A stretch of 32,000 bases of DNA from Telmatocola sphagniphila (GCF_018398935.1 NZ_CP074694.1:3900001-3932000), one strand, 5' to 3'. Shown: positions 5,690-28,926, numbered from the stretch's first letter. Numbers and translations: made by a program. The notes: generated by a model not told the origin, from the sequence alone.

Positions 5690-5754
5690 TGTCCCCTTTC
5701 CTGAAATATCTACCGGTTTAGCCGTTTAAATCGCTATAGGAATTACCTTCTCTT
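5690..5754 (+). repeat. left terminal inverted repeat (IRL)
   Basis: TGTCCCCTTTCCTGAAATATCTACCGGTTTAGCCGTTTAAATCGCTATAGGAATTACCTTCTCTT. It matches the reverse complement of 9376-9440 at roughly two thirds of positions (blocks TGT, CCCCT, AATAT, CCG, TTTAA, AGGAATT, TCTCTT). Confidence 0.65.
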
Positions 5755-5788
5755 TCTTAGGCGGGAATACCGCCAGAAGAGAGGCTAT

Positions 5789-7378
5789 ATGGATGAATTC
5801 AACCAGAATGCATTTGCGGAGAAAAGAGAAGAACAACCGAGAGCTGGTCCGACGGAGGATAGGGACCCGCAGTCCGCGGCTGCCGAAGTGGGGCGGGCGG
5901 AGCCGAGCGCCCCTGAGCGCAGCGAAGGGGAGCGACGCGGAGCCCGCCCCACTTCGGAGTCCTTTCCCGATGCGGGTCTGGATTTATCGGATTCCGTGGA
6001 TTCCGAGGTAGAAGCCAGCCTTTCGAAGCGTAGGGAATTCCACTCGAGGTTATCGGTTCGGGGACCTGTTAAGGGACGGCGTTTGGTGAAAAAACCGACC
6101 GAACCCGTGCCGGCGATGACGGCGGAACAGCGGATTTTGTTGCTGGATACCTGGCAGCGGAGCGGCTTGCCCGCCGGCGATTTTGCTCCTTTGGTAGGCG
6201 TCTCGAAACACACGCTTTACGCATGGAAGAAGCGGTTTGAAATTTCTGGCCCGGCCGGATTGTTGGATCAGCCGCGGGGCAAACCTCCGGGCAGCCGCGT
6301 TCACGAGTTGACCAAGCGTACAATCCTGATGCTCAAAAAATCGAATCCGGAATGGGGGTGTCAGCGGATTAGCGACATGCTATTGCGAGGTCCGGCTTTA
6401 CCGGCGAGTGCTTCGGCGGTGGCCCGGGTGCTGCATGAAGCCGGTTATCAACTGGAGCAGGCTCCGACGCGAGGGCATCCGGACAAGGTGCGGTCCTTCG
6501 AGCGGGCCCGTCCGAATCAGTTATGGCAAACTGATCTTTTCACATTTGTGTTAAAACGTCAGAATCGGCGCGTTCATTTGGTCGGGTTCATGGACGATCA
6601 CAGTCGGTTTTTGGTCGGCTACGGCTTGCATGCGAGCCAGTCATCGGCTTTGGTGCTGGAGGTCTTGCGAGCTTCCATGGCTTCTTATGGAACGCCGGAG
6701 GAGATTCTCACCGACAACGGTACGCAGTATGTGACCTGGCGGGGTAAAAGTGCCTTCTCGAAGGAACTCGAAAAACGGGGCATTCGACAGGTAGTAGCGT
6801 CTCCGCGTCATCCGCAGACTTTGGGTAAGATCGAGCGGTTCTGGGGAACCTTGTGGCGTGAGTGCATCGAGAGTGCAATCTTCATCGACATGGGGGATGC
6901 TCAGCGTCGGATTGGGTTATTCATAGACCATTACAACTTCCAGAGGCCCCATCAGGGGATCGATGGTCTGGTGCCCGCGGACCGTTACTTCGGGGCGGCC
7001 TCGGAAGTGCGTCGGAGTCTTCAAACTCGGGTAGCCGCGAATGCCTTGGAGCTGGCTCGAAACGGGATTCCGAAGCAGCCGTTTTATCTGACCGGCCAGG
7101 TGGGAGGTCAGCCCTTCAGCGTCCATGCGGAAGGGGAACGGATGATCTTGACCCGGCCCGAAGGAGAACGGCGGGAGATAGACTTGGTGCCCCCTCCGCC
7201 GCCGGAATCGACTTCCCGAGACGAGTTGCCCAAGCCGGTCTGTCCGGTCGGCGAGGTGAGCAATCCTCAAAGCTTGGGTTCGGAAGAGCCGTCTTTGCCG
7301 GGGGAATCGCCGTTGGATGAGAGCCTGCGTCTGATCGAGGATATGTGGTCGATCCCGCCTGAGGGAGGTGACTTATGA
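5789..7378 (+). CDS. DDE (rve-type) integrase/transposase, IS481-like single-ORF architecture
   Basis: 529 aa. HTH at LPAGDFAPLVGVSKHTLYAWKKRF. Catalytic-type motifs are WQTDLF (D), ILTDNGTQY (D) and LGKIERFW (E). The first ~100 aa are low-complexity, so the true start may be the internal ATG at 6116 (MTAEQR). Confidence 0.85.
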   Translation: MDEFNQNAFAEKREEQPRAGPTEDRDPQSAAAEVGRAEPSAPERSEGERRGARPTSESFPDAGLDLSDSVDSEVEASLSKRREFHSRLSVRGPVKGRRLVKKPTEPVPAMTAEQRILLLDTWQRSGLPAGDFAPLVGVSKHTLYAWKKRFEISGPAGLLDQPRGKPPGSRVHELTKRTILMLKKSNPEWGCQRISDMLLRGPALPASASAVARVLHEAGYQLEQAPTRGHPDKVRSFERARPNQLWQTDLFTFVLKRQNRRVHLVGFMDDHSRFLVGYGLHASQSSALVLEVLRASMASYGTPEEILTDNGTQYVTWRGKSAFSKELEKRGIRQVVASPRHPQTLGKIERFWGTLWRECIESAIFIDMGDAQRRIGLFIDHYNFQRPHQGIDGLVPADRYFGAASEVRRSLQTRVAANALELARNGIPKQPFYLTGQVGGQPFSVHAEGERMILTRPEGERREIDLVPPPPPESTSRDELPKPVCPVGEVSNPQSLGSEEPSLPGESPLDESLRLIEDMWSIPPEGGDL

Positions 7379-7866
7379 CGACTAATTCCGAGGCGAAAGC
7401 ACCGCGTCGGTCTCGTTCGATAGGAGGTCCAAAACTGGGCGAGTCCTGCGGTCCGCAGGCGAAGCGTCTGGCTTCGGTGATACTGGAGGTACTCGCCGGG
7501 GCTCGCACTCCGACCGATGCGGCCACGGCGGTAGGAATCTCTTTGCCGAATTATTATCAGGTCGAAACGCGTGCCTTGCAGGGATTACTGAAAGCTTGCG
7601 AGCCGCGCCCCCGCGGTCGAGTACGGACCGATGCCAGCGAGTTAGCCTCCTTGCAAAAGGAGAATCAGCGTCTGCAACGGGAACTCGGTCGGCACCAAGC
7701 TCTGGCCCGTGCGTCGCAGCGTGCGGTGGGCCTGGCTCCGCCCCCGACGCGATCGGCTTCGGGAAAGAAGGGGCGAAAACGGCGGACCACCGTGCGTGCT
7801 TTAAGCATTGTCGCTCGGTTGAATCCCGTGCAGCAAGAGGCCCCGAAGGAAGCCGGCGTCCAGTGA
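7375..7866 (+). CDS. transposon accessory HTH/coiled-coil protein (paralog 1)
   Basis: 163 aa, start overlaps the integrase stop (ATGA). TDAATAVGISLPNYYQVETRALQGLLKACEPRPRGR...LQKENQRLQREL aligns with VTEACQILGISEPRYHQLKHQMLAAALEALEPRPAGR...LQKELREREAEL of the next ORF. Confidence 0.7.
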   Translation: MTTNSEAKAPRRSRSIGGPKLGESCGPQAKRLASVILEVLAGARTPTDAATAVGISLPNYYQVETRALQGLLKACEPRPRGRVRTDASELASLQKENQRLQRELGRHQALARASQRAVGLAPPPTRSASGKKGRKRRTTVRALSIVARLNPVQQEAPKEAGVQ

Positions 7867-7900
7867 TAACGATATCGCCCTCGATCGAGGAGGATCGGAG

Positions 7901-8374
7901 ATGCGGGGACGAAAACCGGCGGGACCGGAGTCAGTCGATGAACTGCCCGGTTCCGTCATCGCGAAGGATCGCTTGAAAACGTTGTTGCGGACGATGATCG
8001 GAGAATGCCGGGTGACGGAAGCTTGCCAGATACTGGGCATTAGCGAACCCCGTTACCATCAGTTGAAGCATCAGATGCTGGCGGCGGCCCTGGAAGCCCT
8101 GGAACCGCGTCCCGCCGGTCGTCCGGTTCAAGTGCCTTCGGCGGCGGAAGCGGAGATTCAGAAACTTCAAAAAGAATTACGGGAACGGGAAGCGGAGTTA
8201 AATGTAGCACTAGTCCGCGAAGAACTTGCATCGATATTGCCTCGCGTCGCTAAGTCAGCGACCGAACCAGAGAAAAAAAAACGGAAGCGAGGGCGACCAC
8301 CGGGGGACAAAACGGCCGGCGGCGGCGAGGTTGGGGGCGGCAAAAAGATCGCCGGGAGATCGAAAGGAATCTGA
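7901..8374 (+). CDS. transposon accessory HTH/coiled-coil protein (paralog 2); OrfA-like partner of the downstream integrase
   Basis: 157 aa, GGAGG 8 nt upstream. HTH-like ACQILGISEPRYHQLKHQ, then a coiled-coil and a basic tail. Contains an A9 run (8273-8281) near its 3' end. Confidence 0.75.
   Translation: MRGRKPAGPESVDELPGSVIAKDRLKTLLRTMIGECRVTEACQILGISEPRYHQLKHQMLAAALEALEPRPAGRPVQVPSAAEAEIQKLQKELREREAELNVALVREELASILPRVAKSATEPEKKKRKRGRPPGDKTAGGGEVGGGKKIAGRSKGI
8273..8281 (+). promoter_or_regulatory. candidate -1 programmed frameshift site (A AAA AAA) joining 7901-ORF to 8383-ORF
   Basis: The A9 run is read as AAA AAA AAA in the 7901 frame. The -1 frame (that of 8383..9432) is free of stops from 8254 onward. 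OrfA / -1 / OrfB is the classic IS3-family layout. Confidence 0.55.
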
Positions 8375-8382
8375 GGCGGCGA

Positions 8383-9432
8383 GTGGTCGAGGTAGTGGAT
8401 CGAACGCGGCAACGGGGCTTCTCGATACCTAAGATTGCCCAGCGCTTGCATATGGCAGGTCGCACTCTTCGGCATTGGGTTCAGAGCAATGCGGCGACAT
8501 CTCCTCGACCTTTGGGAAGACCGGTTGTCCGTTCGTCGCGATTGAAGCGAATGGAAGTGCTTGCTCTGTTGGCCGATCTCGGGCCGGCCACCAGCGTGGC
8601 AACTCTCAAAGAGTGCTTCCCGGAAATGACGCGTTCCGAGCTCGAAGACATGCTCAGGCGCTACCGCCGCGTCTGGCGGAAAAGGTATAAACGAACCGGC
8701 TTCCGGCTCAGGTGGACTACGCCGGGAACCGTCTGGGCGATGGATTACACGGAGACGCCACTCATTGATGGAAAGGACCAATACCTGTTGGCAGTCCGAG
8801 ATCTGAGCAGTGGTCAGCAGTTGCTAGCCTGGCCTGTGGCGGCGGCAACTGCCGAGGAAACGCTTGTGGCCCTTCGGTCATTGATCACCCGGGAGGGAGC
8901 CCCGCTGGTACTGAAAATGGATAACGGTTCTCCGTTTATTGCCGAAGTGGTCCAAGAATATTTGCAGCGAGAAGGCGTGTTCGGCTTGTACTCTCCGCCG
9001 AGGAGGCCACAATATAACGGTGCGATCGAAGCGGGCATAGGATCTTTGAAAAGTCGAATCGAACGTAGAGCTGCCTGGGAAGGCCATCCGGAAGTGTGGA
9101 ACGCTGAGGATGTGGAGGCGGCTCGACGGGAAGCCAATGCCTTGGCTCGACCGAGAGGAGGTCTGGGTCCTACTCCCGAGACGCTTTGGAAAAGTCGGGA
9201 GAGAGTCGCAACAGAATCTCGCGATCAGTTCCGAGAGCTTGTTGAAATCCATCGGAACCGAGCTATGGAGGAGGAAGGAAAATCTCCTTCGGGAGTGTTG
9301 CTCGAGCAGGAAGCTCGCCGTATCGATCGAATTGCTTTACGCCGTGCTCTCGTCGATCACGGCGATCTTTTGTTCAAGAGAGGGCCAATTCCTCTAGGAA
9401 TTAAATCGCAAAAAACGGCAAATATTACGTGA
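8383..9432 (+). CDS. DDE (rve-type) integrase, IS3-like OrfB; stop codon 8 nt from the element terminus
   Basis: 349 aa from GTG 8383 (probably also made as a fusion via the frameshift). Motifs are WAMDYT (D), LKMDNGSPF (D) and YNGAIEAGIG (E). Its 3' end lies inside IRR. Confidence 0.85.
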   Translation: MVEVVDRTRQRGFSIPKIAQRLHMAGRTLRHWVQSNAATSPRPLGRPVVRSSRLKRMEVLALLADLGPATSVATLKECFPEMTRSELEDMLRRYRRVWRKRYKRTGFRLRWTTPGTVWAMDYTETPLIDGKDQYLLAVRDLSSGQQLLAWPVAAATAEETLVALRSLITREGAPLVLKMDNGSPFIAEVVQEYLQREGVFGLYSPPRRPQYNGAIEAGIGSLKSRIERRAAWEGHPEVWNAEDVEAARREANALARPRGGLGPTPETLWKSRERVATESRDQFRELVEIHRNRAMEEEGKSPSGVLLEQEARRIDRIALRRALVDHGDLLFKRGPIPLGIKSQKTANIT

Positions 9433-9440
9433 GGGGTACA
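8927..9440 (+). repeat. right-arm repeat, copy 1 (within the complete element)
   Basis: This 514-bp segment recurs at 13309-13822 and 18139-18652. The encoded 161-aa tail differs at 4/161 (copy 2) and 2/161 (copy 3) residues. Confidence 0.95.
9376..9440 (-). repeat. right terminal inverted repeat (IRR)
   Basis: Reverse complement reads TGTACCCCTCACGTAATATTTGCCGTTTTTTGCGATTTAATTCCTAGAGGAATTGGCCCTCTCTT. Pairs with IRL. Confidence 0.65.
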
Positions 9441-10647
9441 CTGGTTAGGCGTAGGCGGGGCTTGGCGTGAAAATCCAACCCTAATAAATGAATGGTTTGA
9501 AGCGAACGATTGCAATCCTTTTAAAGGTGACCTTAATGATGCATTAAGCATCGATGCAAGTAAGTACAGCAACATAGGCACTTTTAATGGTCAATCTTAT
9601 GCACAAGCAGGAGCTGATACGGCAAAAGCAATCAAAGATATGTTGAGTGATACAGCACAATCACTCGTGGTAAATCTGGCTATTCAGTACGGAGCTCCGT
9701 TTTTTTTGAAGACTGTTGAATTCCTTGCGAAAAGCGGTTGGACAGTTGTGAGAGATCAATTCGGGAAAATTATTAGAATCGAAAAGAATGGAATCAAAAT
9801 CACTAGAGCTCAGTTTAAAGATGCGGCAACTGCACAATGTTTCCCAGCAGGAACTTTGGTAGACGCAGAATTTGGTTTGATAAAAATCGAAGAATTAAAC
9901 GTTGGAGATAAAGTTTGGTCATTCGATCACAAAAATCTGGAATGGAAACTAAAGCCAATACTAAATACCTATATCTTGAAATTTGAGAGTGGGTTAGCCT
10001 CCATTTTGGCTGCAGACGAAGTGATTGAAGCTACGGGCGGTCATCCATTCTGGGTGGTTAGAGGCGAATTTTTGGAAAACAGGCCATCTCCAAAAGTCAT
10101 CTCTCCCAGAGAGATAGATGGAAAACTTGATGGTCGCTGGGTATTAGCAGAAGATTTGAAGCCGGGTGACGAACTTTACTCTCGAAATAAATCCAAAGTA
10201 AACGTAGAATCGATTATTATTCGGACGCAACATTTATTTGTATTTAATATACAAGTTGAAGAGTTGGAAAATTATGCAATAACTTCCCTCGGTATTCTCG
10301 TTCATAATCAGAATGCGATTGCTGGATTCGAAGCATACGGTGTAAACCCTCTTCCAGGTACTCGAATCAGGCCACCAGGCATTCCGGATGGTTGGCGAAT
10401 TCGCGGAACGAAATCAAAAGGTGGAATCGAGTACTATAACCCTAATAATCCAAATGAAAGCGTAAGAATAATGCAAGGCAACCCGAACAGTCCATATCCA
10501 AATTCACAAGGGCCATATGTTCGCCAACGGGATGCGGGGGGGAATTATTTACGGCCAGATGGTACTCGTTCGCCATTACCCAATGGCGGAAATAAAGATC
10601 CCGATACTCATATCCCACTTGAAAGATATCCAGGATTTATCCAATGA
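9441..10647 (+). CDS. 5'-truncated polymorphic toxin module 1: pre-toxin region + complete Hint domain + C-terminal toxin domain (family unassigned)
   Basis: The frame is open from 9433, directly after the integrase TGA; the listed ATG is 9640. Hint hallmarks are CFPAGTLV (N-terminal Cys) ... GGHPFWV ... ILVHN (C-terminal HN). A ~110-aa tail follows (GTKSKGGIEYYNPNNPNESVRIMQGNPNSPYPNSQGPYVRQRDAGGNYLRPDG...DTHIPL). The region is AT-rich. Confidence 0.7.
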
Positions 10648-10970
10648 CTCACTATAACAAATCAACGGTATTGTCGGCACTAGATGAATTAGGGAGCCTA
10701 GAAGCTCAAAATCGTCTTTGGCTTTCGGATGGATCTTCAGGAGAAATTTCTTCCTTTGAAGAAGCGATTTGCCAGATATTTGATGCAGGCGTTACACACG
10801 AATTGGAAACACGGCAAGTCCCTGCTCCAAGCTATCTGTTATTCATTAAATTGGACCATTTAATTTCCAAAGTGCCAGAAAATATGCCGCCGAAAGATTT
10901 AATATCATTATCAATAATGACAGAAATAAGAGATTTAGCTGTAAAATTAAAAAACAGCATTACAAAATAA
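10644..10970 (+). CDS. putative cognate immunity protein 1
   Basis: 108 aa. Its ATG overlaps the toxin TGA (ATGA at 10644-10647), implying translational coupling. The product is small and acidic. The call rests on position. Confidence 0.5.
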   Translation: MTHYNKSTVLSALDELGSLEAQNRLWLSDGSSGEISSFEEAICQIFDAGVTHELETRQVPAPSYLLFIKLDHLISKVPENMPPKDLISLSIMTEIRDLAVKLKNSITK

Positions 10971-11030: not shown

Positions 11031-11232
11031 AGCCGAATAGTTATTGAATTGCCAGTCGTCGCTTACGCTGCGAATTTGGTAAGGGAATTGACCTGTTAAG
11101 TCGGTTTTTCCCCGCCGTCTTTGATCGGTGATAAATCGTACCTCGCTCCTACCCCGCCTCGGGTCTGTACAATTTTCCTTTTCCATTTTGCGGTCGCGGT
11201 AGGGACGGGGATTACTCCCCGCCCCCCGCACA

Positions 11233-11265
11233 GATCCGTGCATGCGGAATTACCGCACACGGCTC
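11233..11265 (-). ncRNA. group II intron 1 domain V
   Basis: Minus strand reads GAGCCGUGUGCGG-UAAU-UCCGC-AU-GCACGGAUC. It fits the 34-nt domain V consensus (AGC triad, two-nt bulge, tetraloop) and starts right after the RT stop. Confidence 0.8.
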
Positions 11266-12579
11266 TTACTTCGGGTGTTTGGCATAGAAGCGTTCGTTTG
11301 GAGAAGGATGAAGGATTTTCGGGGAAGCAAGAAGTCGATTGGCGAGAGGGCCGAATCGCTCCCAAATCAAGCGATTTCTCTGGCTCCGACGCCTGAGCGA
11401 CTTATACCAGATACGTACAACTTGAGTGTGAAACGATTGCAGAGCGGGCATGTTCCCTGGGATCGCATGATACTGATAGTACCCTGCCAGCACCTGGCGT
11501 AACCAACTTGCTTGCTCGGGGATTGGTTCGTGCCGCCTTTTCGAAAGCACTTCTTTCACCCGTTGCAAGCGAACCCTCATTCGCTTCTTCGCCGTCTTCC
11601 TTTTCACCAGAAATGTTCTGCTCAATCGTTTTACGCCACAACAATGGGTAAAGCCGAGGAACTCGAACGTTTCTGGTTTCCCTTGGCCACGCTTCTGACG
11701 ATCTTCGCCCGCGAACCGGCCGAATTCGATCAAGCGCGTTTTCTCGGGGTGCAATTCCAGTCCAAATTTCTGGAATCGAGCTTTCAGGTCGAATAGAAAC
11801 CGCTCGGCTTCGCGCCGATACTGGAATCCCAGTGCAAAATCATCGGCATACCGGATAACAATGACGTCTCCGTAGGCATGCTTTTGCCGCCACTGGTGCA
11901 CCCAAAGGTCGAAGACATAATGCAGATACAGATTCGCGAGGAGTGGAGAGACCACTGCCCCTTGAGGTGTACCCATTTTCGTTTCCGACCAGCGACCGTC
12001 TTCGGATACTCCCGCTTTGAGCCATTTCTGGATCAGGCGGAGAATCCTCGGATCGGCGACCCGGTGCTCGACGAATTTCAGCAGCCATTCGTGGTCGATG
12101 GTATCAAAGAAACCCCGAATGTCCGCATCGAGCACCCAATTCACCTTCTTTCCCATGATTCCGACGTGAAGGGCATCCAACGCATCGTGCGCCGAACGCT
12201 TCGGTCGAAAACCGTAGGAAAAACCCACGAAATCCGCCTCCCAAATCTCACTGAGAACCGTCACTATAGCTCGTTGGACTACCTTGTCCTCTAGAGCTGC
12301 AATGCCCAACGCTCGCATTCCTCCGTCCGCTTTTGGTATGTGCGTCCTCCTTACGGGGACAGCTCGATAGCTTCCGGTATGAATGCGGCGATGGAGATCC
12401 TCGATTCGATGAGTTAGACCAATTTCGTACTCCTTCCACGTGACACCATCATTGCCCGGAGCCGCATCCTTCTGCAAGGTTTTGAAGCTCTGAATCATTA
12501 AGGGTATTGTCACATGATGAAGTAAAGCGGTGAATTTTACCTTCTTATCCTTTCGTGCCACTTCTCGCACTCGCTGCAT
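11266..12579 (-). CDS. group II intron reverse transcriptase/maturase (no endonuclease domain evident)
   Basis: RT motifs are KFTALLHHVT, PGNDGVTW, RTHIPKADGGMRALGI and IRYADDFALGF; the C-terminal part is maturase (X)-like. The probable start is ATG 12579 (MQRVREVARK). The 602-aa track ORF (to 13074) reads through intron RNA domains I-III. Confidence 0.85.
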   Translation of the reverse strand: MQRVREVARKDKKVKFTALLHHVTIPLMIQSFKTLQKDAAPGNDGVTWKEYEIGLTHRIEDLHRRIHTGSYRAVPVRRTHIPKADGGMRALGIAALEDKVVQRAIVTVLSEIWEADFVGFSYGFRPKRSAHDALDALHVGIMGKKVNWVLDADIRGFFDTIDHEWLLKFVEHRVADPRILRLIQKWLKAGVSEDGRWSETKMGTPQGAVVSPLLANLYLHYVFDLWVHQWRQKHAYGDVIVIRYADDFALGFQYRREAERFLFDLKARFQKFGLELHPEKTRLIEFGRFAGEDRQKRGQGKPETFEFLGFTHCCGVKRLSRTFLVKRKTAKKRMRVRLQRVKEVLSKRRHEPIPEQASWLRQVLAGYYQYHAIPGNMPALQSFHTQVVRIWYKSLRRRSQRNRLIWERFGPLANRLLASPKILHPSPNERFYAKHPK

Positions 12580-13221
12580 TCCGGATGACGCGTTGGCTCC
12601 GCTCTGTGTCGGAAACGCGACCTTCTGCAGTAAGTTTCCCGATGTTGATAGCCTTCCCTCCATCGTCTCCGCCGGTCTCCGACCTTTGTTCGACGACTTC
12701 TCGGGTACTACGCCATCATCCGACTTCTCAAGGCCGTACATGTCAGGATTATGGGTTATCCCCTTTCCCGACCGATCCGACGAACCATCTTCGACGGATG
12801 AACTTGAGATCTCCCGGTTCCCGCGCAAAGAGTTTTCCCACATGCTCAGGGCCTCCGACTGCGTAGAGTTCCAGGAAGACTCGCCTATGATGCCCTCCTC
12901 GATGTGGCCTTCCGCTTCGGTTAACAGCGTCGGCACCCCAGATGACGTGATTTCGCAGCTCGATACCTGGCCTGTGTGTGCCCCTGTCAACGCTTCACCG
13001 ACAGCCTCGCGACTGGCGGCGTATGACTCGGGGTCGAGATGACTGGCTAAGTCTTCCTCGCGTGACTCTTTCATTCACTACTCCTTGCCGGTTTCGCCGG
13101 CGCACTAACCGTGCTGTGAAATGCGTCCTTGCGTACTTTGCTAGTTGTCCCGAACCGAATTCTGGTCGCATTTGTAGCCGAATTAAAGCTGTAGGGATTT
13201 TGGCATTTTGAAGGGTGTTTT

Positions 13222-13822
13222 GCCGAATACCGGGGAATTTTGGAGCGGTCTGATGACCGAGACCGGGGTGTTGCGATGGGCCGGCGTAGTCCGGCACGAG
13301 GCGCTGCCGTTCGCCGTTTATTGCCGAAGTGGTCCAAGAATATTTGCAGCGAGAAGGCGTGTTCGGCTTGTACTCTCCGCCGAGGAGGCCACAATATAAC
13401 GGTGCGATCGAAGCGGGCATAGGATCTTTGAAAAGTCGAATCGAACGTAGAGCTGCCTGGGAAGGCCATCCGGAAGTGTGGAACGCTGAGGATGTGGAGG
13501 CGGCTCGACGGGAAGCCAATGCCTTGGCTCGACCGAGAGGAGGTCTGGGTCCTACTCCCGAGACGCTTTGGAAAAGTCGGGAGAGAGTCGCGACAGAATC
13601 TCGCGATCAGTTCCGAGAGCTTGTTGAAATCCATCGGAACCGAGCTATGAAGGAGGAAGGAATATCTCCTTCGGGAGTGTTGCTCGAGCAGGAATCTCGC
13701 CGTATGGATCGAATTGCTTTACGCCGTGCTCTCGTCGATCACGGCGATCTTTTGTTCAAGAGAGGGCCAATTCCTCTAGGAATTAAATCGCAAAAAACGG
13801 CAAATATTACGTGAGGGGTACA
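13222..13822 (+). repeat. right-arm repeat, copy 2 (601 bp = 87-bp extra segment + 514-bp arm)
   Basis: 13309-13822 matches 8927-9440. 13222-13308 matches only 18052-18138 and is absent from the complete element. Confidence 0.95.
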
Positions 13823-14249
13823 TTTTTTTGATAGCACAAGAGGTTGGCTCCCTGCTAAATATTTGAAAATCGGAGACCGAATACAAGGCAACGAAAAAGA
13901 GTGGTTATCGATCACAGATTTATTCGAAGACAAAGAAGTAGAACCGGTCTATAACTTAAGAATCGCTGACTATCACACTTATTTTGTTGGAGAAGATTTT
14001 TGGAGCTGGTGCATTTGGGCGCATAATCATTATTTTGAGGTTGGCGCGTTTAATGAATTAAAGCAGATAACGGGCTGGGCGAGGCATCACGTTCCACAAA
14101 CAGTGGTCGCATTGGCTCACGGAGCCACCGATTTTGTGCGAGCAAACGGGCCTGCTATTCGTATACCAGAATGGATGCATAAGGAGATTATTCACTTAGA
14201 GTCTGTTCCAAAAGCCCCTATTTCGGATGAATTTCTCGAGGATTTGTAG
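13823..14249 (+). CDS. 5'-truncated polymorphic toxin module 2: C-terminal part of a Hint domain + toxin domain with HH motif (possible HNH/EndoVII-type)
   Basis: The frame is open from 13815, directly after the arm's TGA. GWLPAKYLKIGDRI...VYNLRIADYHTYFVGE...WAHN aligns with the distal half of the module-1 Hint domain. The ~75-aa tail contains GWARHHVPQ and IPEWMHKEI. Confidence 0.6.
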
Positions 14250-14424
14250 GGTTAGTCCCGGCTTTTGGAACAGACTCTTAACTGAGAGTGGTTTTTTTGC
14301 TAAAGAAGCTGGAAACATTTCACAGCATATTAAAAGTCATTTGCAGCAATTGAGTAACATGGGTGTGCCTAAACAATATTTGCAAGAATTGAAACAACTT
14401 ATAAAGTGGTGGGAATTCGGATAA
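14227..14424 (+). CDS. small ORF overlapping toxin-2 3' end (hypothetical)
   Basis: 65-aa track ORF in the +1 frame relative to toxin 2. The C-terminal part (HIKSHLQQLSNMGVPKQYLQELKQLIKWWEFG) looks protein-like. It is unclear whether it is a separate gene or a frameshifted continuation. Confidence 0.25.
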   Translation: MNFSRICRVSPGFWNRLLTESGFFAKEAGNISQHIKSHLQQLSNMGVPKQYLQELKQLIKWWEFG

Positions 14425-14470
14425 ATTGAACTGAAAAATATTTCTTATTTTATGAGGTATTGGTGACATT

Positions 14471-14944
14471 ATGCACTCGGAGATGATAGAAAATGTCGCC
14501 CTCCATTATTATAACTCCGTTGTTATTGGAGTTATAAGAATGCTCGGGCGAATTCGGGATTTGAATTTGGGCGATTCGCGCAATCCACGTTACAATGACT
14601 TGAAAAAATTGCTTCAAAATTTAAATAAATTTGATCCCGAAGATAAATCTTTGCTGATTTCAGGATTAGTAGCAGTGGCTGAATATTCTTGTTATGCTAC
14701 TGCTGGATTTGTTGAGCATTATAATTCATTTGAATCTGATAACAATAATGATTTATACCCTTCTCTCGTTCTATCGTACAAATATGAAAAAGATGGCGTA
14801 ATTTCATCAGAGGACGTGGCATCATATCAAGACGGCTTCTCAGATGGCTCCTTCGAATCAGCCTTCATGAAAGTTGCATCATCACCTCAAATGAAAGATC
14901 TCGTTCAAAGTAAATTGGTGGAAATATTAGCCAAACTAAATTAG
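14471..14944 (+). CDS. putative immunity protein 2
   Basis: 157-aa AT-rich ORF on the same strand, downstream of toxin 2. The call rests on position; no recognisable motif. Confidence 0.4.
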   Translation: MHSEMIENVALHYYNSVVIGVIRMLGRIRDLNLGDSRNPRYNDLKKLLQNLNKFDPEDKSLLISGLVAVAEYSCYATAGFVEHYNSFESDNNNDLYPSLVLSYKYEKDGVISSEDVASYQDGFSDGSFESAFMKVASSPQMKDLVQSKLVEILAKLN

Positions 14945-15712: not shown

Positions 15713-16466
15713 AATCTAGACTTGGGTGGCACTGTCTATCTGACAGTGCCATTTAGAACTCACCCATCCTACAACAACAAATCACCCTATTTCAACCCAG
15801 AAGGAATTCATGCCCCGGCGGGTGGCAATGGCAAGCATTCTTAATCAGCGCATGTCGTTATCCAGTAACGGTTTGAGTGGCACTGGCCATCTGCGAGTGC
15901 GTTTCTGCAATAAAGCGTTCTTTCTGCTCGAATTTGTGCCTGAGAGGGTGACAATTCTCTGGCACTTTTTTCTCCCACGCACTGGCAGTTAGCCAGTGCC
16001 ACGCGCCCGTGACTATTCGATACTAGCAGGGTGAGATTCCCTGTCGAAAGGAGGCTTGGCCTTTTGTACCCGAAGGTAACTGCGTCGCCGTGAGGCGGGG
16101 TGGGGAGCAACCCGAGGGGAGCATCTCGTCCGCAATAAAGTGAACTCGTTTCGGCAGCGGATACCGGCGAGCCTGCGTGGCTAAGGCGAAGCTAGCAAAG
16201 CCGGATTGACCGAGAGGTCCGCCAGTGGTTTGGAGAACTAATGGCGACGGCATCATCCCGAGATAAAGCCCCAAGCGAGTCGAGGGAGGTATCCGATGTG
16301 GTTGGAGGCGGAAGGAAAGCGAAGGTATCGAATGTAAGCGGGGATATCCGAGGCGCCGGGGAAGGCAAATGCCTTGTGCGTCGGAAGTCAGAGCGTTCAT
16401 AGTAGCGTAGAAATCGGGTAATACCGAGGGAGCGAAGGGACGTAGGAAGGTGGATTTCGAGGTTAC

Positions 16467-17834
16467 ATGAGCAGGAAAGAGAAACCGTCGTCAGTGCCAG
16501 TGGCTAAGCAAGGCGGAGAAGCCGGCGACCGAACTCCGGGAACCGTTAGTAGGGTCCGAGAGCAATGGTCGTGGGCGGAACCTGCGGTGTGGACTGATCG
16601 GATGTTGAGTGCGCTCGAAGCGGGCGTTAAAGGAGGCGTCTGGTTTAGCTTGATGGACAAGGTGTGCAAGAAGAGGAACCTGAAGTCGTCGGCGACGAAA
16701 GTCATAGCGAATGCGGGTTCGGCAGGCGTGGATCATGTAAGTGTCGAGGCGTTTGCAAATCATTTGGACGAGAACCTGGAAGCTTTGGAGCGGACTTTAC
16801 GGGACGGAACCTACCGTCCTTCGGCGATCCGGCGAGCGGTAATTCCGAAGCCGGGGAGTGAAGAAGGCCGTCCTCTAGGAATTCCGACGGTTCGAGACCG
16901 GGTGGTTCAAGGCGCGATTCGTCAGGTGCTGGAACCGATTTTCGAGAAGGATTTCGCCTCGAATAGTTACGGCTTTCGTCCGGGCCGGGGCTGCAAAAAT
17001 GCCTTGCGAGAGGTGGACAGACTTCTGAAAGAAGGAGGCACGCATCTGGTGGATGTCGACATCAAGGGCTACTTCGACGCGATCGATCACGATCAGTTGA
17101 TGGATGTGCTGAAGCGGAAGATCGCGGACGGAACGCTACTAGGTCTGGTGGAACAATTTCTGAAAGCCGAGATATTCTCGCCGATGGGGAGTTGGGAGCC
17201 AGATTCGGGAGCGCCGCAAGGAGCGGTTTTGAGTCCGTTGTTGAGTAACGCCTATCTGGATCCTTTGGACCATTTGATGGAATCCCTAGGTTTTCGGATG
17301 GTGCGATACGCGGATGACATGGTGATCGTCTGCCGCAGTCGAGCGGAAGCGGAAGAAGCCCTGGCGACGTTGAGCCGCTGGTGCGAATCGGCCAAGCTAC
17401 AACTGCATCCGGAAAAGACGAGAGTGGTGGACACGCAGATCGAGAGTTTCGAATTTCTAGGCTATTGCTTTGGAGTTTATAAAGGACAACGTCTGATATA
17501 TCCTCGGAAGCGAAGTCTGGAGAAACTTCGGGATGCGATTCGCGCGAAAACGAAGCGGAAAAGAGGCGATAGCCTGTCGCAGATCGTCCGCGACGTGAGC
17601 GTAACGCTACGAGGCTGGTACGGATACTTCAAGCACAGCAAAAAGGGGATCTTTCGGGACGTGGATAAATGGACTCGAATGCGGCTGCGGTGCATACTGC
17701 GTCGTCGTCTGGGTCACGATTGCAGAAGCCGAAAGAGAGATAACTTCAAGTGGCCCAAAGCTTACTTTGCCGAGGCGGGACTGTTCTCCCTGGAACAGGC
17801 ACATCGTCTGGAATCTCAATCCCTCAAGGGGTAA
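16467..17834 (+). CDS. group II intron reverse transcriptase/maturase (no endonuclease domain evident)
   Basis: 455 aa. Motifs are WTDRMLSALEAGVKGGVWFSLMDKV, AGVDHVSVEAF, RAVIPKPGSEEGRPLGIPTVRDRVVQ and VRYADDMVIVC, followed by a maturase-like C-terminus. Confidence 0.9.
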   Translation: MSRKEKPSSVPVAKQGGEAGDRTPGTVSRVREQWSWAEPAVWTDRMLSALEAGVKGGVWFSLMDKVCKKRNLKSSATKVIANAGSAGVDHVSVEAFANHLDENLEALERTLRDGTYRPSAIRRAVIPKPGSEEGRPLGIPTVRDRVVQGAIRQVLEPIFEKDFASNSYGFRPGRGCKNALREVDRLLKEGGTHLVDVDIKGYFDAIDHDQLMDVLKRKIADGTLLGLVEQFLKAEIFSPMGSWEPDSGAPQGAVLSPLLSNAYLDPLDHLMESLGFRMVRYADDMVIVCRSRAEAEEALATLSRWCESAKLQLHPEKTRVVDTQIESFEFLGYCFGVYKGQRLIYPRKRSLEKLRDAIRAKTKRKRGDSLSQIVRDVSVTLRGWYGYFKHSKKGIFRDVDKWTRMRLRCILRRRLGHDCRSRKRDNFKWPKAYFAEAGLFSLEQAHRLESQSLKG

Positions 17835-17849
17835 GACTACTGACCGGAA

Positions 17850-17882
17850 AGCCGGATGCGGGAGATCCGCCCGTCCGGTTTG
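17850..17882 (+). ncRNA. group II intron 2 domain V
   Basis: AGCCGGAUGCGG-GAGA-UCCGC-CC-GUCCGGUU matches the domain V consensus and lies 16 nt after the RT stop. Confidence 0.8.
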
Positions 17883-18051
17883 GAGGGAAGGGGGAGCCAT
17901 TAACTCCTCCTAGCCCTATACGGAAATTGGACGAGGATTGAGTCCTACAATTCGCAAAGATCAATAAAAAAAACAGCAAGTAACCAGTGCCACCCAAACT
18001 GTTACTCAATAACGACTTGAGTTGATTTAGTTAGGTTACCAGTGCCACCCC

Positions 18052-18652
18052 GCCGAACACCGGGGAATTTTGGAGCGGTCTGATGACCGAGACCGGGGTG
18101 TTGCGATGGGCCGGCGTAGACCGGCACGAGGCGCTGCCGTTCTCCGTTTATTGCCGAAGTGGTCCAAGAATATTTGCAGCGAGAAGGCGTGTTCGGCTTG
18201 TACTCTCCGCCGAGGAGGCCACAATATAACGGTGCGCTCGAAGCGGGCATTGGATCTTTGAGAAGTCGAATCGAACGTAGAGCTGCCTGGGAAGGCCATC
18301 CGGAAGTGTGGAACGCTGAGGATGTGGAGGCGGCTCGACGGGAAGCCAATGCCTTGGCTCGACCGAGAGGAGGTCTGGGTCCTACTCCCGAGACGCTTTG
18401 GAAAAGTCGGGAGAGAGTCGCGACAGAATCTCGCGATCAGTTCCGAGAGCTTGTTGAAATCCATCGGAACCGAGCTATGGAGGAGGAAGGAAAATCTCCT
18501 TCGGGAGTGTTGCTCGAGCAGGAAGCTCGCCGTATCGATCGAATTGCTTTACGCCGTGCTCTCGTCGATCACGGCGATCTTTTGTTCAAGAGAGGGCCAA
18601 TTCCTCTAGGTATTAAATCGCAAAAAACGGCAAATATTACGTGAGGGGTACA
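18052..18652 (+). repeat. right-arm repeat, copy 3 (601 bp; left side truncated at a CCAGTGCCACCC motif)
   Basis: Collinear with 13222-13822 with a few substitutions. Upstream flanks of copies 2 and 3 diverge immediately 5' of GCCGAA. Confidence 0.95.
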
Positions 18653-18881
18653 GATTCAAGGCCGTATGCCTGAAAATTTGGCAGAACAGCTAATTATGGA
18701 AGATGCATTTGAGGACGGCGGCCAAGTGATTATGAAAGGTCCTTTTGGTGATCCTTTGTATCAAGCCCCAGGCTGGGTTAAAAAGCAAATTACGCATACG
18801 CTGCCTGATGGAACAAAGATAGTAGTACATTATATGCACAACACGATTACTGGTGAAATTGCTCAGGTTAAATTCAAGTAG
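18653..18881 (+). CDS. 5'-truncated polymorphic toxin module 3: short C-terminal toxin tip (family unassigned)
   Basis: The frame is open from 18645, directly after the arm's TGA; the listed ATG is 18666. The ~75-aa peptide is ...GPFGDPLYQAPGWVKKQITHTLPDGTKIVVHYMHNTITGEIAQVKFK. It is AT-rich and an immunity-sized ORF follows. Confidence 0.4.
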
Positions 18882-18913
18882 CCTAGTAATTCCCAATTAG
18901 CGAAAGACTGAGA

Positions 18914-19351
18914 ATGAAGATTGAATGTATTTCAAAATCTGCAATCACTTTGCCAGTAGACTTGATTCGTCCCGAGCTCGGACTCGGTAGAGATCGCATT
19001 TTTTCTTTAATTACTGGAAAGCAATATGTCGTATATGGTATTACATGTTACCTCGGTCATTTATGGTACTATATTTGTGATGAAGACTACTCTTACTATC
19101 CAATATGGAACCCGGCCCCATTATTTAGAATAACAGACAATCGAATATCTAAGTACTGGGAAATAGGCGAATATCTAATAGGCTCCTCAGAAATAATCCC
19201 GATTATTTCTTTCAGCGAATGGGTACAAAATCCCATATTTTATGATCTGCTAACAGATAGGGAGCAATCCGCCGTACAAACATTTATAAAATACAAGAAG
19301 TTGATTGATGAAGAATCTAACATAATTGATCAGGATGATGCGCAACTGTAG
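18914..19351 (+). CDS. putative immunity protein 3
   Basis: 145-aa AT-rich ORF, 32 nt downstream of toxin tip 3 on the same strand. The call rests on position. Confidence 0.45.
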   Translation: MKIECISKSAITLPVDLIRPELGLGRDRIFSLITGKQYVVYGITCYLGHLWYYICDEDYSYYPIWNPAPLFRITDNRISKYWEIGEYLIGSSEIIPIISFSEWVQNPIFYDLLTDREQSAVQTFIKYKKLIDEESNIIDQDDAQL

Positions 19352-25165: not shown

Positions 25166-26420
25166 ATGGATTCGAGCGAGGAAGTTCCCGAATGTCCCGG
25201 TGGCCGCAAACGTGACGCGATCAACGCGGATTTACTTCATCGCGTCACGCCTTTGGAAGTGAAGCTTAACACTAATTCTCGCAATTTTTCCAATCCTCTT
25301 TCGGCCAATTCACTGGACGCTCCGCCGCCGGTAGTCAAGCAGAAATCGAAGCGTCGACACGGCGGTCAACAGGGTCATGCCTCATTTGAAACAGCTATTG
25401 CCTTCTGATCGAACCACACGCGTCGAACGGATTGTTCCCGATTTGTGTGGCTGTTGCGGCGTAACGACGCAGGCGAGTAGTCCTCAGTCCCTTCGACAGC
25501 ACAGCATCAGTCCTTGGTTTACGGCGACTTTATCGTATTTGAGCGGCTGTTAGTGAGTCAGCAAACGCTGCGTCGGAGAAATCGCCGAGGCGATCTTCGG
25601 CGTGCCGATTGCCTTGGGTACAGTGTCGAACCTGGAGCGGGAAGCAGCGTCGCGTTCGAGCCAGCTCATACCGAGGCGGTTCAGTCGATCTGAACTCATC
25701 CGTGAAATATGTCGACGAAACCAGCTGGAAGTTGGGGGCAAGCTGTGTTGGCTCTGGGGAGCGGCAACGACCAATTTCGAAGCCTTTGTGATTCACGGTC
25801 AAAGTGGCGTGGCGGGTTTGACGACGCTCCTGGGGAAAAACATTCGAGGGATTCTTCACATTGATCGCTGGCATGCGTATCGGCAAGTGCCCGAAGAGCG
25901 CCGACAATTGTGTTGGGCTCATCTAAAACGGGACTTTCGAAAAATTGTCGAAGGCGGCGGGCCCAGTGAGTTCGTGGGACGCCGCGGCCTTCGCTTGGTC
26001 CGGGAGTTGTTCGTGGCCTGGCAGGCCTTCCGAGCCGGCACGATTGACCGCGCGTGTCTTCGCGCTTTGATTGCGCCTTTGGAACGTTGTCTGAATAAAA
26101 CCTTGTTACAAGGAGCATTGGCGGGTGAGGAACGCATCGCGAAATTCTAAGAAAATCTCATCGCCTTGGAACCGGCGGTGTGGACCTTCGCCAAGACCGA
26201 AGGAGTCGAACCGACGAACAATCATATGGAACGATTGGTGCGGCTCGCGGTACTTTGCCGTCGTCGCAGTTTCGGCAGCAATAGCGAGATAGGTTGCCGA
26301 TTCGTCGAACGAATTCTCTCCGTTGTACAAACCTGTCGACTCAGTCGCAAAAAAGTGGTCGACTATCTTACCGCTAATACAGCCAAGCGAACCCAACCCA
26401 GATTACACATCGCCTGTTGA
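25166..26420 (+). pseudogene. IS66-family transposase, decayed (several frameshifts and in-frame stops)
   Basis: The pieces lie in three frames: RRHGGQQGH / LLPSDR..CGCCG; YVDETSWKLGGKLCWLWGAAT..DRWHAYRQV..CWAHLKRDF; and EPTNNHMERLVRLAVLCRRRSFGSNSEIG. A TAG TGA pair at ~25549-25554 interrupts the frame. Confidence 0.8.
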
Positions 26421-27412: not shown

Positions 27413-28926
27413 ATGTCGAACTATCTCTTGCCTCATCATCAAGCGAAACTCCAAAATTCAGGCTTGTCGCCAGAAGCCATTTCCGCTCGCGGGTATAAAA
27501 CCCTCAGCACTAAAGTCGAGGTCGAGAGACTTTCCTTCTCTCGATCTCAAGCTACCGCGCCAGCTTTGCAGATACCGATTTGGAATGCGGAAGGTTTAAG
27601 AACAGTTAACCAAATTCGTCCAGACACACCACGAATAAATCGGGAAGGCAAATCTATCAAGTATGAATTGCCCCTTGAATCCAAAGTAGCTATTGATGTT
27701 CCCCCTTCTATCCGCGAAAAGGTATTGGATATAACCCAACCTCTTCTGGTTACGGAAGGGCCAATTAAAGCTGATGCAGCTGCTTCGAAAGGTTATGCAG
27801 CAGTCTCGGTTCTGGGTGTTTCAGGTTGGCGTGCCGATGATCCATTTTGGAAAATCGCACCCCTTAAAAATAGAACATGCTACATAATCTTCGATTCTGA
27901 TATCTCGACGAACGAAAATGTGAAGAGAAGCGCCCTGCGCCTAGCAGAAAACTTCAGAAAGCACGGGGCAATACCGGAAATTGTGATACTACCACACTCC
28001 GCCCAAAAGACTAAGCAAGGCTTGGACGATTATCTTGCTTCTGGCAAAACTGACAAGGATTTGTTGGCTCTAGACCGAATGGAAATATCCGAAATTGCCG
28101 ACTCGGAGCCTTTCAACGCCATGGCAAAATATAAATGCACAAAAAATGGCCTAGCTATGTTAAGCTCAAACAATAAAGAGCCTTCTTGGATTTTACTAAC
28201 AAATTTTATTGCTCGCATTACAGCAGAAGCGGAGATCGACGATGGTAACAGTACCCGACTTGAGTTCGAAATCACTTGCGAGTTAGGGGGAGAAACGAAG
28301 TTGTGTAAAGTCCAGGCAGAGGAATATGAAAGAATGACCTGGGTAATGCCGCATTTGGGTGCCGGCGCGATTATTTTTGCTGGAGTTATGACACGCGATC
28401 ATGCTCGAGCGGCAATCCAAGCAGTCTCGGATAAAATAGTGAAACGTAAAGTCATTGAGCATCTTGGATGGCGTAAATTTGGCATTGAATGGGTTTATTT
28501 CCATGCGGGAGGGATCATCCGGTCCAATCCAAAATCAAATGCCCAATCACATGATGGAAAATCGGACATAGAAAATTCCAACGAAAACCCGCAGAATGGT
28601 ATTCCATGCCCGAATTGTCCGACAATTTCGACTGTCGATCCGCTACAGGACGTTGAGGTGAGAGTTCCTAAGGTGTTAAGTTCCTATCGGTTGCCAGAGA
28701 AACCAAAGAAAGAATCTCTAATAAGAGATATAGCTAAGCTGATTGAACTCTTAGAGGATACAATTCCCGCGCGCCTTTGGATGCCGCTGCTCTCTGCAGC
28801 GTTTCGAATAGCTATTGACCAGGTTGATTTCAGTATTCATCTTGTGGGGGTAACTAACTCCGGAAAAACGACACTCACCTCATTGTTTTGTCAATTTTTT
28901 GGCCCAGATCTTCATGCCCGGAATTT
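27413..28926 (+). pseudogene. primase-helicase-like gene, 5' part (DUF3854/Toprim-like domain + Walker A), interrupted by ISL3
   Basis: PLLVTEGPIKADAAASKGYAAVSVLGVSGW...YIIFDSD...GLDDYL is the DUF3854/Toprim pattern, and VGVTNSGKTTL is a P-loop. Native sequence ends ...GPDLHARN(L) at 28926; the track ORF tail to 29014 is IS-encoded. Confidence 0.75.

Follow-up and report, generated by a model that had tools for sequence, protein, structure and literature searches.

A conserved insertion sequence family with four genes, two different DDE transposase modules and no target-site duplications

Insertion sequences usually encode one transposase, and transposition by enzymes with a DDE (Asp-Asp-Glu) catalytic triad usually leaves a short duplication of the target. 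In the IS3 family the expression strategy is the production of a fused OrfAB protein through a ribosomal frameshift, and OrfA acts as a partner or regulator; many insertion sequences, with IS3 and IS911 as examples, encode truncated or alternative forms of the transposase as regulators. Members of the IS481 family make target duplications of 4-15 bp. Copies of the IS26 type often lack duplications and sit at deletion or inversion junctions, and their transposition is replicative and often intramolecular. H-rpt elements of Escherichia coli are recurrently found beside Rhs core/tip junctions and orphan tips. Here we describe an element with an IS481-like and an IS3-like transposase module that lies at positions 5690-9440 of a 32,000-nt stretch of the genome of Telmatocola sphagniphila, a planctomycete of peat bogs (NZ_CP074694.1:3900001-3932000). 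The whole stretch is referred to as the window, and positions are counted from its first letter. The element had been proposed from the sequence of the window alone (the original prediction), and we compared it with its relatives in genomes and metagenomes.

The segment 5690-9440 is one transposable unit with four co-oriented genes and a single pair of terminal inverted repeats. Calls of open reading frames (ORFs) reproduced the four predicted genes, the ATGA coupling of the first two and the 34-nt gap between the second and the third; all four ORFs are on the plus strand and together span 5789-9432 (Table 1). The element begins with TGTCCCC... at 5690 and runs up to ...GGGGTACA at 9440. Its imperfect terminal repeats, estimated earlier at about 65 nt with TGT/ACA tips, align over approximately 66 nt, with identity in 50 of the 77 aligned columns (z = 6.7 versus 2000 shuffles). 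The G+C content is 55-62% within the element and 38-42% in its flanks, and the adjoining pentamers, ATAAC on the left and CTGGT on the right, show no duplication. The product of gene 1 is identical to a protein of T. sphagniphila (Gemmataceae) labelled only 'DDE-type integrase/transposase/recombinase'. The search of the element found no sigma-70-like promoter and no excess of terminator-like sites over shuffled sequences, and no Rfam family matched inside it, including the hairpin in gene 1. A contig from the Logan read sets (L001), identical to the window, begins exactly at 5690 and ends at 8956, at the start of a 514-nt internal repeat. These start and stop points suggest multiple junctions at the left end in the read set, so that the element is probably repeated. 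We consider it likely that the segment is an intact copy of an autonomous insertion sequence family whose two transposase modules would act jointly as a heteromer and join the element to its target without duplication.

The recurring unit is the whole four-gene element, 3.4-4.8 kb in length and with identical ends in many genomes. Thus the alternatives raised in the original prediction, a unit of 3.75 kb or parts of about 2.2 and 1.6 kb, are settled in favor of the former. A gene 1 homologue with 72% identity (P0072) belongs to an element of 3,784 bp that carries the full set of four genes and is joined to at least four left flanks and at least three right flanks, all different. An alignment-based profile search of genome contigs with gene 4, whose sequence alone matched nothing there, yielded 80 loci in metagenome-assembled genomes (MAGs); most carry genes 1-2-3-4 in colinear order, and gene 4 fragments or contig edges account for most of the others. 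The hosts span at least eight phyla and include Planctomycetota (Gemmataceae, Isosphaeraceae, Pirellulales, Phycisphaerae), Acidobacteriota, Myxococcota, Alcaligenaceae and other Proteobacteria, NC10, Nitrospira, Desulfobacterales (Desulfobacterota), Akkermansiaceae (Verrucomicrobiota) and Eisenbacteria. Among 80 metagenome contigs found through gene 1, gene 4 is present on 56, and 23 are too short to tell; a single contig lacks it (56 of the 57 with room). Long-read MAGs contain from three to at least 12 copies with 95.8-99.97% identity and identical ends. There are at least 12 in an Isosphaeraceae genome, where they are 4.48 kb long and 98-99% identical, and the 3.70-kb copies of an Acidobacteriota genome are 99.97% identical. 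Multiple near-identical copies with identical ends were also found in three more MAGs (Gemmataceae, Isosphaeraceae and an unclassified planctomycete). The gene 4 lineage comprises 923 clusters at 50% identity (E ≤ 1e-30); among PLSDB plasmids no relative of gene 4 was detected at E ≤ 1e-10. The element belongs to a large, conserved and apparently undescribed insertion sequence family that carries two different DDE modules. We found no publication that describes this family or any other two-DDE insertion sequence, earlier curation in ISfinder being possible.

The four genes diverge together. The distance matrices of genes 1 and 4 from 63 elements are correlated (r = 0.82, Mantel p = 0.001), as are the matrices of all six gene pairs. 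The median ratios of nonsynonymous to synonymous substitution (dN/dS) are below 1 for every gene, at 0.21, 0.40, 0.49 and 0.48 for genes 1 to 4, these being rough values as dS is partly saturated. The original view of a single four-gene element rather than two abutting insertion sequences is therefore upheld, since the whole unit recurs and its genes co-diverge. A chance pair of ordinary insertion sequences, in tandem or nested, that have lost their inner ends would agree with the origin of the two DDE proteins from different lineages. It would also agree with two loci of one Alcaligenaceae MAG (L039 and L041) in which the halves are separated at the gene 2-gene 3 spacer. In these loci gene 3, gene 4 and a right tip are followed by about 2 kb of unrelated DNA and then by genes 1 and 2 (L039, 7350-9016 and 11023-12983; L041, 7485-9019 and 11336-13301); an L-type tip precedes gene 1 in L041, and none was detected ahead of gene 1 in L039. 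Such a pair is nevertheless scarcely credible, as the same gene order and the same outer ends are found in more than 100 loci from many phyla, multi-copy genomes included, the four genes co-diverge, and the spacers have no conserved internal end. The faint resemblance to a terminus noted earlier at 7863 is not conserved among relatives; in about 100 of them, the spacer between genes 2 and 3 has hairpins and a ribosome-binding site and lacks any conserved sequence that resembles a tip. In most relatives (e.g. L096, L100 and L103) this spacer is 60-120 nt long, with a GC-rich terminator-like hairpin followed by GGAGGA and ATGCGTGGACG, an arrangement that suggests semi-independent expression of the two modules. 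The much shorter spacer of the window copy has no hairpin.

The two putative transposases are clearly different, as originally predicted; they are only distantly related to each other (27% identity over 74 aa by BLASTP; hhalign E = 6e-10). Their assignment as IS481-like (gene 1) and IS3-like (gene 4) holds in that these are the best NCBIfam models, but the scores stay below the family cutoffs (209 versus 224 and 76 versus 160 bits, respectively). Gene 1 aligns with the IS481 model end to end (1-284 of 284) with 209.4 bits. Residues D249, D309 and E349 are invariant among 21 gene 1 homologues with 67-75% identity, in which the long N- and C-terminal extensions are also conserved; the predicted structure of gene 1 is too poor for use (mean predicted local distance difference test score, pLDDT, of 47). 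The small proteins encoded by genes 2 and 3 have only weak matches to helix-turn-helix (HTH) families of Pfam, which for gene 3 are HTH_28 and HTH_Tnp_1. By sequence comparison genes 2 and 3 are clear paralogues, as had been proposed (BLASTP, 32% identity over 113 aa, E = 1e-10; hhalign profile-profile probability 99.0%, E = 3e-18). Gene 2 is kept in nearly all relatives. In a 538-aa protein from a Joint Genome Institute metagenome (P0170), the N-terminus of gene 1, about 170 residues through the first HTH, continues in frame into gene 4, the junction being in the equivalent linker ahead of the second HTH. The protein looks like a derivative that has lost the core of gene 1 together with genes 2 and 3 by deletion, and it shows that the domain layout is common to both transposases.

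The hairpin in gene 1 (inverted repeat I1) has a folding energy of -62.8 kcal/mol as RNA (z = -5.1). About half of the relatives have a hairpin at the matching position, approximately 190 nt from the left tip (e.g. L017, 5344-5424, and L024, 324-417). Compensatory changes were observed at 23 of its 26 base pairs in 30 relatives that were chosen for having a stem. The outer stem is hypervariable yet paired, and the inner loop is conserved (GGAGCGGAG...CAGCGAC...GAGCGGAGC). Candidate roles for the hairpin are translational control, protection from read-through transcription, and binding of a protein.

Genes 3 and 4 form an IS3-type orfA/orfB pair with a predicted -1 frameshift and are not two independent genes. 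The original prediction had treated gene 4 as a separate gene of 349 aa. The corresponding ORF from GTG 8383, the first in-frame start codon, is present; however, the frame is open from 8254, 43 codons upstream of this codon, overlaps gene 3 by 121 nt, and would be reached by the -1 frameshift. Most homologues of gene 4 are about 388 aa long and start with MKRL/VKRL...RRGxARQR. The same conserved N-terminal stretch (...RRRRGWGRQKDRREIERNLRRR...) is found in the gene 4 frame of the window upstream of GTG 8383, where it has no start codon. A run of nine adenines in gene 3 (8272-8280) provides the in-phase heptamer A_AAA_AAA at 8275-8281, and a -1 slip at this site would create a 510-aa fusion of genes 3 and 4. 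Of 59 distinct elements, 49 have gene 4 in the -1 frame with respect to gene 3 (binomial p = 5e-15). In-phase A6N heptamers are found in the overlap of 46 of the 59, in every case at a conserved PEKKT motif. Counts of in-phase A6N heptamers by gene gave 41 for gene 3 and zero for each of gene 1 (26,555 codons), gene 2 and gene 4. Natural in-frame fusions of genes 3 and 4 also exist, including P0142, the N-terminal part of which is 49% identical to gene 3, and many representatives of 530-700 aa. RNA structure downstream of the slippery site is not significant in the window (z = -0.66).

The catalytic part of gene 4 belongs to the rve domain of Pfam. Residues D121, D180 and E216 (DD35E) and K223 are invariant in 21 gene 4 homologues; the spacing between the second aspartate and the glutamate is 36 residues, and the lysine follows the glutamate by seven residues. 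The IS3 model of NCBIfam is the best one both for gene 4 (76 bits, with 69 bits for IS481, both far below the cutoffs) and for the conceptual fusion (90.6 bits, cutoff 160). Gene 4 is predicted to adopt an integrase fold: its AlphaFold2 model has a pLDDT of 81.7, and the best PDB matches are the integrases of Rous sarcoma virus and prototype foamy virus and the IstA transposase. The final codons of gene 4 (KTANIT*) are located inside the right repeat, and the KTANIT C-terminus is conserved.

The ends of the relatives were delimited by matching to known tips, since detection of repeats by local alignment is too noisy in GC-rich DNA. The family consensus is TGTCCCCCTTCCCGAAAT..TTGCCG for the left end (90 distinct ends) and TGTGCCCCcTACGTAAT.TTTGCCG for the right end (83 distinct ends); the two differ at position 4 and at positions 11-14. 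All 90 left and 83 right delimited ends conform to TGT...ACA, the TGT itself being a search criterion, and the exact tips were confirmed by multi-copy alignments. Counts of solo left and solo right ends are uninformative, as the loci were recruited through gene 4. No target-site consensus is evident among the paired genome copies.

Target-site duplications were found in none of the 69 copies with both flanks available. The longest match between the flanks is 0 nt in 28, 1 nt in eight and 2 nt in two of the 38 paired genome copies, and 0 nt in 24, 1 nt in five, 2 nt in one and 3 nt in one of the 31 metagenome copies, which is the chance level, even for copies that are 99.97% identical. The original prediction had correctly noted the missing duplication at the window locus and had inferred recombination after insertion. 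The count of 0 of 69 indicates a property of the family and not damage to one copy. An ordinary element that forms duplications and loses them through recombination between copies might be considered, since recombination between multi-copy elements does happen and three right ends lie within 13 kb in the window. Insertion sequence copies without duplications have been tied to rearrangements in a published study (PMC11708052). This explanation seems to us very unlikely in view of the absence of duplications even at 99.97% mutual identity. Moreover, among 12 copies of one genome there was no excess over controls of left/right flank matches between different copies, that is, of the split duplications that are the signature of replicative inversion. 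In one Acidobacteriota contig (CAWGOF010000003, approximately 73.6-87.6 kb), two 99.97% identical copies (L031 and L034) are arranged tail to tail; a distance of 4.56 kb separates the right tips, which face each other, and the second copy is without its first 117 nt. Such a layout is expected of intramolecular replicative inversion.

Both flanks of the window copy are truncated, unrelated genes, in agreement with the original prediction. The left one is a glycosyltransferase/tetratricopeptide repeat gene on the minus strand that is open through the junction and has no start codon; the right one is a PT-HINT toxin gene open from the junction. In the family as a whole, outward-reading ORFs at the right flank encode polymorphic-toxin proteins in 13 of 69 cases (~19%; seven Rhs_assc_core, three YD/RHS-core and three PT-HINT), compared with two of 74 at the left flank (Fisher p = 0.002). 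In copies with a 5'-truncated Rhs/YD/Hint gene at the right flank (L033, L040, L080, L084 and the window), no Rhs-like sequence was found in 4-5 kb of the left flank, so that the two flanks are not the halves of one interrupted gene. One of the copies with such flanks is 99.97% identical to its siblings. One could suppose that the element is a recombination module of polymorphic-toxin loci that displaces or shuffles Rhs/PT-HINT tips and is not primarily a selfish transposon. The bias toward the right flank would fit this idea, as would the window, where all three right tips adjoin 5'-truncated ORFs, two of them with PT-HINT domains, and the cassettes form an array. We consider it improbable, because about 80% of insertions are beside unrelated genes and the flanks diverge immediately outside the tips, which means that no toxin cargo is carried. 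The enrichment could be passive, toxin loci being large, dispensable and rich in mobile DNA.

The three right tips of the window (9440, 13822 and 18652) are each followed by a 5'-truncated ORF open from the junction. The respective cassettes span 9441-10970, 13823-14944 and 18653-19351, and one of the junctions cuts the middle of a PT-HINT domain. The combination of a right end and a toxin tip is thus seen three times within 13 kb. Small ORFs downstream of the toxin cassettes may be immunity genes.

We propose the following model for the transposition of this family. Two full-length transposases would be made, namely the gene 1 protein, from a first module in which gene 2 is translationally coupled to gene 1, and a gene 3-gene 4 frameshift fusion of about 510 aa, from a second module consisting of gene 3, which would also be made alone, and the gene 4 frame. 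The small HTH and coiled-coil proteins (gene 2 and unfused gene 3) may serve as partners or regulators, like OrfA of IS3-family elements. Both enzymes would be needed and would be joined as a heteromeric transposase, in which each enzyme, with its cognate small HTH partner, recognizes one of the two dissimilar ends. After cutting at the TG/CA tips, strand transfer would proceed from the 3'-OH groups. With one enzyme encoded beside each of two different ends, the simplest model is a heteromeric synaptic complex in which recognition is end-specific. The absence of duplications together with the non-contiguous flanks points to one of three routes: the ends may be joined without a stagger, they may be joined in a non-concerted way, or replicative transposition, which would often be intramolecular, may stay unresolved. 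Joining of this kind would explain both the duplication-free copies and the location of many copies, that of the window included, between unrelated truncated genes. A more far-reaching version, which we put forward only tentatively and rather doubt, holds that the two-DDE heteromer is obligate with one end for each enzyme, that joining is unstaggered or independent, so that each transposition gives an insertion free of duplications and often a deletion or inversion, and that toxin genes on the right side are favored, with orphan toxin tips as a product.

Several observations weigh against joint action of the two enzymes. The activity of either enzyme and the need for both are predictions, and end-specific recognition is suggested only by the conserved sequence differences between the L and R ends. 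We know of no rve-type transposase that integrates without a stagger. Gene 4 evolves faster than gene 1 (mean distance 0.55 versus 0.30). In two loci (L064 and L092) the joined flanks form long ORFs that stay in frame across the insertion, so that some insertions may be simple; homologues of the L064 ORF align only from the first residue past the junction, and for both loci the homologues neither show nor exclude contiguity. Finally, the segment 7350-9016 of L039 is a 1,667-bp unit that has genes 3 and 4 between an L-type tip and an R tip but lacks genes 1 and 2. The L end of this unit shares homology across approximately 65 nt with the one that precedes gene 1 in L041. The unit either derives from an internal deletion or represents a two-gene form, and its existence implies that the halves are separable and that genes 3 and 4 might suffice for movement or be mobilized in trans. 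Independent movement of the halves, which the original prediction had named as the outcome that would speak for two ordinary insertion sequences, was not seen in general; L039 is the only support for it.

The same unit, with both end types and only genes 3 and 4, bears on the possibility of an ancient fusion in which one DDE enzyme moves the element and the other is a regulator, an inhibitor or a passenger. The weaker constraint on genes 3 and 4 relative to gene 1 would be consistent with such a division, as would the regulatory use of truncated or alternative transposase forms in many insertion sequences. We regard the fusion scenario as rather unlikely, given that hundreds of clusters at 50% identity show no change in either catalytic triad, that 46 of 59 elements keep the frameshift signal for a full-length second enzyme, and that genes 1 and 4 co-occur near-obligately in both directions; a pure regulator would not need the D, D, E and K residues. 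Joint action of the two modules is the reading we prefer.

Table 1. Coordinates of the window copy, its predicted expression signals and the two partial copies downstream
Feature	Position	Strand	Remarks
Left terminal inverted repeat, L-type tip TGTCCCCTTTCCTGAAATATCTACCG...	5690..5755	+	Aligns with the reverse complement of 9375-9440
Right terminal inverted repeat, R-type tip TGTACCCCTCACGTAATATTTGCCG... on the minus strand	9375..9440	-	
Gene 1, 529-aa IS481-like DDE transposase (predicted)	5789..7378	+	Pfam HTH_28/HTH_32, rve and rve_3; conserved C-terminal extension
Very stable hairpin in the 5' part of gene 1	5883..5957	+	16-bp perfect outer stem
Gene 2, 163-aa HTH and coiled-coil protein	7375..7866	+	Paralogue of gene 3; ATGA overlap with gene 1
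Gene 3, 157-aa orfA-like HTH and coiled-coil protein	7901..8374	+	Starts 34 nt after gene 2
Slippery heptamer A_AAA_AAA, predicted -1 ribosomal frameshift site	8275..8281	+	In phase with gene 3
Gene 4 frame (orfB), rve DDE catalytic protein (predicted)	8281..9432	+	349 aa when counted from GTG 8383
Partial copy, last 514 nt of the element	13309..13822	+	98.8% identical, same tip; adjoins the C-terminal half of a PT-HINT domain
Second partial copy, last 514 nt of the element	18139..18652	+	99.0% identical, same truncation point

The two partial copies are parts of 601-nt direct repeats (13222-13822 and 18052-18652, 98.2% identical), each of which consists of an unrelated 87-nt piece followed by the 514-nt piece. 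The truncation point corresponds to 8926/8927 of the intact copy, exactly inside the catalytic D-N-G codons of gene 4. The upstream 87-nt piece is common to both (13222-13308 = 18052-18138). It was considered as a gene 4-like sequence and ruled out by an in-frame stop codon, and the scanned copy, 18052-18138, has no Rfam match. Right-end fragments with shared truncation points occur elsewhere in the family (1,172 nt in both L035 and L052), and further fragments are 1,294 nt (L063) and 484 nt (L047) long.

The whole window is a region rich in mobile DNA. It contains two different group II introns, at approximately 11186-13069 on the minus strand and 16000-17925 on the plus strand, with Rfam matches to domains D1-D4 and V/VI. 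They encode reverse transcriptases in the ORFs 11266-13074 (602 aa) and 16467-17834 (455 aa, RVT_1 and GIIM), and each intron is located 130-150 nt upstream of one of the partial copies. An IS66-family transposase fragment is found at 25602-26150 (plus strand), and a DUF3854 protein is encoded at 27413-29014. An ISL3-family transposase at 28940-30297 (minus strand) is split into two ORFs, by pseudogene frameshift or sequencing error.

The family breaks, in a conserved way, both of the usual rules of one transposase per insertion sequence and a short duplication per DDE transposition event. If both enzymes are required, it would represent a natural heteromeric DDE transposase assembled from IS481-like and IS3-like parts, and a tractable system for studying how cleavage and joining are divided between two active sites and how the target stagger is set. 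The proposed dual-enzyme, duplication-free behavior would surprise specialists in transposition. The family is present in soil and freshwater Planctomycetota, Acidobacteriota, Myxococcota and other phyla, and it is invisible to insertion sequence censuses because its genes are annotated only with the generic label cited above for gene 1. Detection tools based on duplications will miss its insertions. Copies of the element mark rearrangement junctions and arrays of toxin cassettes.

Among known systems, the IS3 family (IS911, IS3, IS150) is similar in the orfA/orfB organization of genes 3 and 4, with 0 and -1 frames, an A-rich slippery heptamer and a predicted OrfAB, and also in the DD35E triad of gene 4 with a lysine seven residues on and in the TG...CA tips. 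The element differs from it in its scores (76-91 bits, with a family cutoff of 160), in its size (3.4-4.8 kb versus approximately 1.2-1.6 kb), in the additional second transposase gene and second orfA-like gene, and in the absence of the 3-5 bp duplications that IS3 makes. The IS481 family is resembled by gene 1, a single long HTH-HTH-rve ORF without a frameshift for which it provides the best NCBIfam model, and by repeats that begin with TGT. In contrast to IS481 members, which have one transposase gene and produce duplications of the length given above, the element is duplication-free, and gene 1 scores just under the cutoff, has long conserved N- and C-terminal extensions, and is accompanied by the IS3-like module in 56 of 57 contigs.

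Tn7-like elements share with this family the presence of more than one catalytic protein, dissimilar ends that start with TGT, and conserved subterminal blocks, and the heteromeric TnsA/TnsB transposase of Tn7 is the nearest precedent for the proposed sharing of work at the ends by two enzymes. However, TnsA is a restriction-enzyme-like nuclease and not a DDE enzyme, and Tn7 has an AAA+ regulator, target selectors and 5-bp duplications. Pfam and NCBIfam give only HTH and rve domains in the four genes, with no resemblance to TnsA, TnsC, TnsD or TniQ. The IS6/IS26 group is the nearest precedent for duplication-free copies, and the tail-to-tail copies L031/L034 and nearby end fragments are reminiscent of it. 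IS26 nevertheless has a single DDE enzyme of another lineage, short repeats, and many copies with 8-bp duplications, compared with 0 of 69 here. H-rpt of the ISAs1 family is similar in its recurrence beside Rhs core/tip junctions and orphan tips, but its transposase belongs to an unrelated family, and the association with toxin genes in our case is statistical and involves ~19% of right ends. Overall, the element works like an insertion sequence of the IS3/IS481 superfamily, yet it fails to fit either family in size, gene content and target duplication, and its scores lie below both family cutoffs, narrowly so for IS481.

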